This document shows, in pieces, positions 49,230 through 49,901 of a stretch of 64,000 nucleotides of DNA. The position numbers were made by a program, and so were the translations under genes. Position 1 is the first letter of the stretch. Each line of letters starts with the position of its first letter. The notes below the pieces were generated by a model that saw only the letters and a program-made list of their open reading frames with translations, was not told where the DNA came from and ran no database searches. The stretch is from assembly GCF_056746865.1 (NCBI RefSeq), contig NZ_CM163382.1; one strand, 5' to 3'.

Positions 49230-49901
49230 TCACCGCTGTGTCACCCCTTCGTAAATCAGGCGTAGCGCGAATACACCAATAATTGCACCAATAACCCGAC
49301 TGGCAACGCGTTGCATACGCCCATAAGCACGACGCACAGCGGGCAAAGAAAACGCCTGACTAAGAAAAACGCGCCAGATAATTGATGCGAGCACAATCCC
49401 CGCTCAGGCCATTAAACGTGCCCATGTTGGTGTTTCGGCATTTAATGTTACTGAGAAAATACTGATAAAAAATAAAACGGTTTGCGGGTTAGAGAGATCG
49501 GTAATTAATCCACGGCGAAAAAAGACATACCAGGGGGCGTTAATCGGTTGTTGTAGTGTGCTCATTTGCGGTGTTGACTGGCGGCGCATGCTGCACCACG
49601 CAAACCATAAGAGATAAGCGCCGCCGACGATTCTGATAAGCGAAAAAATCTCCTCACACTGCGTAATTAGCGTTGCAAGACCAAACAAACCCAACCCGGA
49701 ATAAAATGCATCGCCCAGCGCCACGCCCAGCCCGGTCAGCACCCCTGCGCGTCGACCGGAAGCCAGGCTGGTTTGTACTACCACAAAGAGATTGGCTCCC
49801 GGATTAAAAAAAGTAATCACGAACAGTCCTACGGTCAGGTAAACGGCGTGCAAAGGATCCATAGTGATTTCATCCATAAATAAGTGAACTAACTGCATCA
49901 T
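49230..49901 (-). pseudogene. yahN: LysE/RhtB-family amino-acid exporter gene interrupted by an in-frame TGA at 49404..49406
   Basis: 165-codon ORF (49404..49901) ends at TGA, and the same frame continues for 57 more codons (AGIVLASIIWRVFLSQAFSLPAVRRAYGRMQRVASRVIGAIIGVFALRLIYEGVTQR) to a stop at 49230..49232, giving the expected 223 aa in total. Confidence 0.7.

Follow-up and report, generated by a model that had tools for sequence, protein, structure and literature searches.

The window analysed here is a stretch of 64,000 nucleotides from contig NZ_CM163382.1 (NCBI RefSeq assembly GCF_056746865.1). It holds on its minus strand yahN, a gene for a putative amino-acid exporter of the LysE/RhtB family, and the reading frame of this gene is interrupted by an in-frame TGA. 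The conserved order yahL-yahM-yahN-yahO-prpR, together with near-identity to b0328 of Escherichia coli K-12, identifies it as the YahN orthologue. Read from position 49901 down to 49230, the frame comprises 224 codons: 165 sense codons, the TGA itself, another 57 sense codons and the closing stop. The TGA (49406..49404) is codon 166 and lies in the context ATG GCC TGA GCG GGG ATT GTG; in the list of open reading frames (ORFs), 49404..49901 is a 165-residue ORF, and a remnant in the same frame ends at 49230. The original prediction, made from the sequence alone, had described a LysE-family ORF closed by TGA after 165 codons, a continuation of 57 codons in the same frame up to a stop at 49230..49232, and a total equal to the 223 amino acids of YahN. 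Translation and the ORF list bear out the first two statements, and the third agrees with K-12 yahN, whose 672 nt amount to 223 codons plus the stop, the length of the interrupted frame.

The window copy and K-12 YahN occupy the same locus with the same synteny and are identical at 666 of 672 nucleotides. The six differences change two residues, S121N and W166*, and the product reaches at most 165 residues unless the stop is read through. A closer reference is the intact allele of strain KK19-02 (WP_000983407.1), which has TGG at codon 166 and is otherwise identical to the window gene, G498A being the sole difference. The 57 codons past the TGA are therefore 100% identical to those of an intact allele, with no further decay, and a chance continuation of the frame is not an issue. 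When codon 166 was repaired to TGG in an 871-bp haplotype around the site, the only exact match was KK19-02 (deposited twice); the other top matches were carriers of the TGA, one mismatch away.

Orthologs give the same polarity. We aligned 27 full-length orthologs of 210–223 residues, drawn from Escherichia, Citrobacter, Salmonella, Edwardsiella, Hafnia, Yersinia and Providencia; such an alignment was one of the checks proposed with the original prediction. Trp166 is invariant in 27 of 27, and none of them terminates naturally at codon 166. Two 165-residue entries (P0094 and P0114) and two other short ones (P0063 and P0081) were considered as natural stops and rejected, since they run out of frame partway and are frameshifted gene calls. 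Given the KK19-02 match, the invariance of Trp166 and the frameshifted nature of the short entries, TGG is ancestral and the G→A transition derived. The stop thus stands where the ancestral and outgroup codon is a sense codon, and homology runs on downstream in frame.

As a separate observation on the frameshifted calls, P0081 (which represents 20 member sequences), P0094 and P0114 shift frame at a T-rich stretch encoding VLFFISIF (TTTTATTTTTTATC; window ~49440..49480), and P0063 shifts near codon 166. Either homopolymer errors in the assemblies account for these shifts, or other strains carry yahN pseudogene alleles that arose independently by frameshift.

The frequency of the allele was surveyed in 5,426 complete E. 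coli genomes, 5,189 of which hold the yahN locus, using 55-nt allele probes; the variant was their 28th base, and each 28-nt megablast seed therefore had to span it. The TGA allele was found in 112 of the 5,426 genomes, always chromosomal and 100% identical over the probe, and the TGG allele in 4,499. An exact-protein look-up placed the 165-residue truncated YahN on 28 public contigs (e.g., E. coli MS 198-1) and a 152-residue form, called from Met14, on at least 1,000 contigs from NCBI, JGI, ENA and Logan. The annotation pipeline PGAP describes the identical sequence of strain 118UI as "LysE family transporter, pseudogene, internal stop" (Eco118UI_RS01915). A sequencing or assembly error in one genome, with TGG as the true codon, had been raised earlier as an alternative, and nothing beyond that prior possibility speaks for it. 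The same TGA recurs in 112 independently sequenced complete genomes, the exact truncated protein comes from four sources, and the change is a substitution and not a homopolymer indel. An error is hardly credible under these circumstances, and we rejected it on the results of the allele-specific probes and the exact-protein look-up. The yahN TGA is a genuine TGG (Trp) to TGA nonsense mutation, as the original prediction had favoured, with TGG in K-12, in KK19-02 and in the 4,499 genomes, and Trp at this position in all aligned orthologs.

The second, shorter gene call touches on where YahN begins. Outside E. coli, orthologs have 210–215 residues, and their first residue corresponds to Met14 as annotated in E. 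coli; only E. coli has the N-terminal extension of 13 residues, MMQLVHLFMDEIT (codons 1–14 region, 49860..49901, minus strand). In the structural model described below, residues 2–13 have pLDDT values under 50. Met14 may be the true start of YahN, in which case the truncated product would have 152 residues.

Carriers of the TGA resemble one another well beyond the gene. Strain 118UI, whose yahN pseudogene does not differ from that of the window, is 100% identical to it over at least 5.3 kb around yahN, TGA included, and many carriers are ~100% identical over 22.6 kb. 118UI belongs to sequence type ST69, phylogroup D (Table 2, PMC8900328), and the record of another carrier is titled "O15:H18 strain ST69". 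Contigs of ST69 wastewater isolates were found to be nearest to 118UI, NMBU-W13E19, WP8-S17-ESBL-12 and SCU-313 (PMC7952442); all four of these strains carry the TGA. In yahL, a linked marker (position 47997, 1.4 kb from the TGA site) sets the window apart from K-12 as well as from KK19-02; 120 genomes have it, eight more than carry the TGA. With codon 166 repaired to TGG, the 1.46-kb yahL-yahN haplotype had an exact match in no genome of the complete E. coli collection. A further marker, in prpR at position 51657, was discarded as a lineage marker because it is widespread (1,656 genomes) and thus uninformative. Identity between KK19-02 and the window is 99.5% in the 5.8 kb around yahN and ~98.3% further out; this divergence and the different gene content of KK19-02 beyond yahK make it a relative and not a member of the same clone. 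Judging from these haplotypes, the TGA allele appears to be essentially coextensive with one clonal ST69-type haplotype, the ST69 designation being taken from one strain and one record name. The undecayed state of the 3′ remnant is consistent with a recent mutation.

We next consider what the truncation removes. All YahN homologues carry a precomputed match to Pfam PF01810. The repaired 223-residue YahN scores 238 bits against TIGR00949, the NCBIfam model of the homoserine/threonine efflux subfamily of the LysE/RhtB family (curated cutoff, 183.95 bits), and covers profile positions 1–185 of 185, which places it in the family. The 165-residue product scores 179.1 bits, just under the cutoff, and spans positions 1–134 of the profile only; it does not cover the full domain of an intact member, two C-terminal helices being gone. 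An AlphaFold2 model of the repaired protein, of moderate confidence (pLDDT 71.6, pTM 0.65, from a 27-sequence alignment), has a helix at residues 159–183, in which codon 166 lies seven residues in, followed by a helix at 186–222. Kyte–Doolittle peaks at 170–178 and 207–213 mark two hydrophobic segments past the stop. Of the six helices in the LysE/RhtB fold, the truncation would then take away the last one entirely and the fifth for the most part. Of the two earlier suggestions on this point, the loss of a hydrophobic C-terminal helix holds, although the lost tail had been taken for the last transmembrane helix alone, and model and hydropathy indicate two. The description of a truncated LysE-family exporter likewise stands on the profile coverage and the lost helices, while its "probably inactive" state remains a matter of inference: from the loss of the two C-terminal helices in the model, the exporter is very probably inactivated.

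The features of the locus are collected in Table 1. Gene order in the wider neighbourhood (yahK-yahL-yahM, yahN, yahO, prpR) is the same in the window as in the annotations of 118UI and K-12, and the divergent position of yahO upstream of yahN confirms the K-12-like synteny yahM-yahN-yahO-prpR. The genes yahM and yahN are convergent, with stop codons 16 nt apart, and therefore no gene downstream of yahN is exposed to polarity.

Table 1. Coordinates of yahN, its parts and its neighbours in the window.
Feature	Position	Strand	Evidence
yahN pseudogene, full ancestral frame (223 codons + stop)	49230..49901	-	Translation; comparison with K-12 and KK19-02; PGAP
Premature TGA, codon 166 (ancestral TGG, Trp166)	49404..49406	-	Translation, allele probes, orthologs
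Mutated base in yahN (G498A in gene coordinates)	49404	-	
yahN, translated 5′ portion (165 codons if read from the annotated ATG, 152 if from Met14)	49407..49901	-	ORF list, TIGR00949
yahN 3′ remnant (57 sense codons + original stop at 49230..49232; two C-terminal hydrophobic helices predicted)	49230..49403	-	Translation, model, hydropathy
ATG codon 14 of yahN, first codon of the orthologs outside E. coli and perhaps the true start	49860..49862	-	Ortholog alignment
In-frame GTG codon 170, 10 nt past the TGA, preceded by GGGG; possible re-initiation site (speculative)	49392..49394	-	Sequence only
yahM, convergent neighbour	48968..49213	+	Annotation of the identical 118UI region, K-12; ORF list
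yahO, divergent upstream neighbour	50048..50323	+	ORF list; 118UI and K-12 annotation

Taken together, these results allow us to regard yahN, with high confidence, as a pseudogene produced by a single G→A change at the invariant Trp166, of single origin, carried by an ST69-type phylogroup D lineage that would thereby have lost the exporter. We propose that one transition turned the TGG of Trp166 into TGA, that it arose once, on one yahL-yahN haplotype, and that it would now be present in essentially the whole ST69-type clonal lineage. Release factor 2 would terminate translation at codon 166, leaving a product of 165 residues (152 if Met14 is the true start) that is expected to be non-functional and is probably unstable, so the lineage would be without this putative amino-acid exporter. 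Neighbouring genes would be unaffected, given the convergent orientation of yahM. We infer that E. coli may tolerate the loss of transport thanks to its several other amino-acid exporters.

Several points weigh against this reading. No solved structure exists for any YahN relative, and the part removed was located on a model of moderate confidence. Among the 5,189 genomes that hold the locus, 578 gave no match to either allele probe. For 112 carriers, the ST69 label comes from a single published strain (118UI) and a single record name. The undecayed 3′ remnant also fits residual constraint. Finally, UGA is the leakiest stop codon of E. coli, read through by Trp-tRNATrp at ~2–4% in a K-12 reporter (PMC10570021), and the allele may be a strong hypomorph instead of a null, since readthrough would yield wild-type YahN.

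This last point may be carried further. If near-cognate Trp-tRNATrp read the UGA often enough to supply meaningful amounts of wild-type YahN, the gene would be down-tuned and not dead. In the K-12 reporter, readthrough rises from ~2% at 37 °C to ~4% at 25 °C, and its level is set by the competition between Trp-tRNATrp and release factor 2 (PMC10570021). At codon 166, the residue inserted would be the ancestral, invariant Trp, rebuilding exactly the wild-type protein, and the 57 codons downstream are undamaged. On the other hand, a 76-nt segment that begins just upstream of the TGA folds like its shuffled versions (z = -0.28), i.e., it forms no structure that would promote readthrough, and the flanks are identical to those of TGG alleles, so nothing has evolved toward recoding. 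K-12 has an unusually weak variant of release factor 2, and natural isolates should show less UGA readthrough; moreover, where expression of the transporter is weak, a few percent of it may not matter. We consider a physiologically meaningful leak unlikely. Slightly harder still to credit is the bolder idea that the UGA is a selected, expression-attenuating switch by which ST69-type strains make a little wild-type YahN in a condition-dependent manner; were it true, more YahN would be expected at low temperature or high cAMP, as with other cases of UGA readthrough, and a pandemic extraintestinal lineage would possess a selected switch.

Two other ways of rescuing the gene leave the UGA as a true stop or assign it a programmed meaning. 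Re-initiation at GTG170, which directly follows the stop and has a run of G upstream, would give a 54-residue C-terminal fragment that might reassemble with the N-terminal one into a transporter. For some permeases, complementation between split fragments is known. Both the GTG and the G-run are also found in intact alleles, so they are ancestral and reflect no adaptation, and the break would fall inside the predicted transmembrane helix 159–183; we hold such a split gene to be very unlikely. Programmed recoding, with the TGA read as selenocysteine, or a natural short isoform, has in its favour that TGA is the selenocysteine codon and no other support. No SECIS-like hairpin was detected past the TGA in the 76-nt segment folded above, and an Rfam scan of the yahN region returned no relevant family; its sole match, RF02278 at 49074..49124, reached 20 bits where the gathering score is 50 (E = 0.26) and was taken as chance. 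Each of the 27 orthologs has its full length and a Trp at 166, and the other short entries are products of frameshifts. Selenoprotein or other UGA recoding was rejected on the missing structure, the missing Rfam family and the flank identical to TGG alleles, and its probability is vanishingly small.

Other features of the window were noted along the way. A complete IS2 of 1,331 bp (46343..47673; InsC/InsD ORFs at 46389..47662, plus strand) lies between yahK and yahL, flanked by the 5-bp target duplication GATAG (46338..46342 and 47674..47678). It is absent from K-12, from KK19-02 and from the nearest ST69-type complete genomes, so that relative to 118UI and the nearest listed genomes the window has an extra IS2 upstream of yahL. 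From this distribution the element looks strain-specific; it ends 66 bp upstream of the yahL ATG (47740) and could alter yahL expression. Further upstream, KK19-02 lacks a segment of ~5.4 kb (~39626..45027) that the window has between yahJ and yahK. The identical 118UI region codes for an ASCH-domain protein and for an ABC transporter of four genes, annotated as autoinducer-2 substrate-binding protein, sugar ABC ATPase and two permeases. On the other side of yahN, two tandem arrays (53161..53632 and 58277..58993) consist of 93–94-bp units in 5.1 and 7.6 copies with 96% matches. Both are REP/PU-like palindromic sequences of the BIME type and sit in intergenic regions matching prpB-prpC and prpE-codB of KK19-02.

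Lineage-specific nonsense pseudogenes are a common type in clonal pathogenic E. coli, Shigella and Salmonella. The yahN case is like them: one nucleotide change in an accessory, non-essential function, apparently fixed in one clone, and a frame that is otherwise undamaged. Unlike in generic nonsense pseudogenes, and this is its sole twist, readthrough of the UGA would restore the ancestral residue. The stop is real and represents ordinary gene decay that is already known, in the form of the RefSeq pseudogene annotation and a truncated product deposited many times. We found no paper on this yahN allele; the literature search gave mentions in gene tables only, and the search by name was swamped by unrelated "Yahn" matches.

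As the stop is genuine and appears to run through the lineage, annotations should retain the pseudogene label of yahN here, and the stop should not be "repaired". The G498A change may be used as a simple marker single-nucleotide polymorphism for this ST69-type haplotype and, as readthrough would restore the exact wild-type protein, the allele would readily offer itself as a natural case for testing "leaky pseudogenes". Beyond such bookkeeping the finding means little more than that one further putative amino-acid exporter would have been dispensed with by a successful extraintestinal lineage of E. coli.
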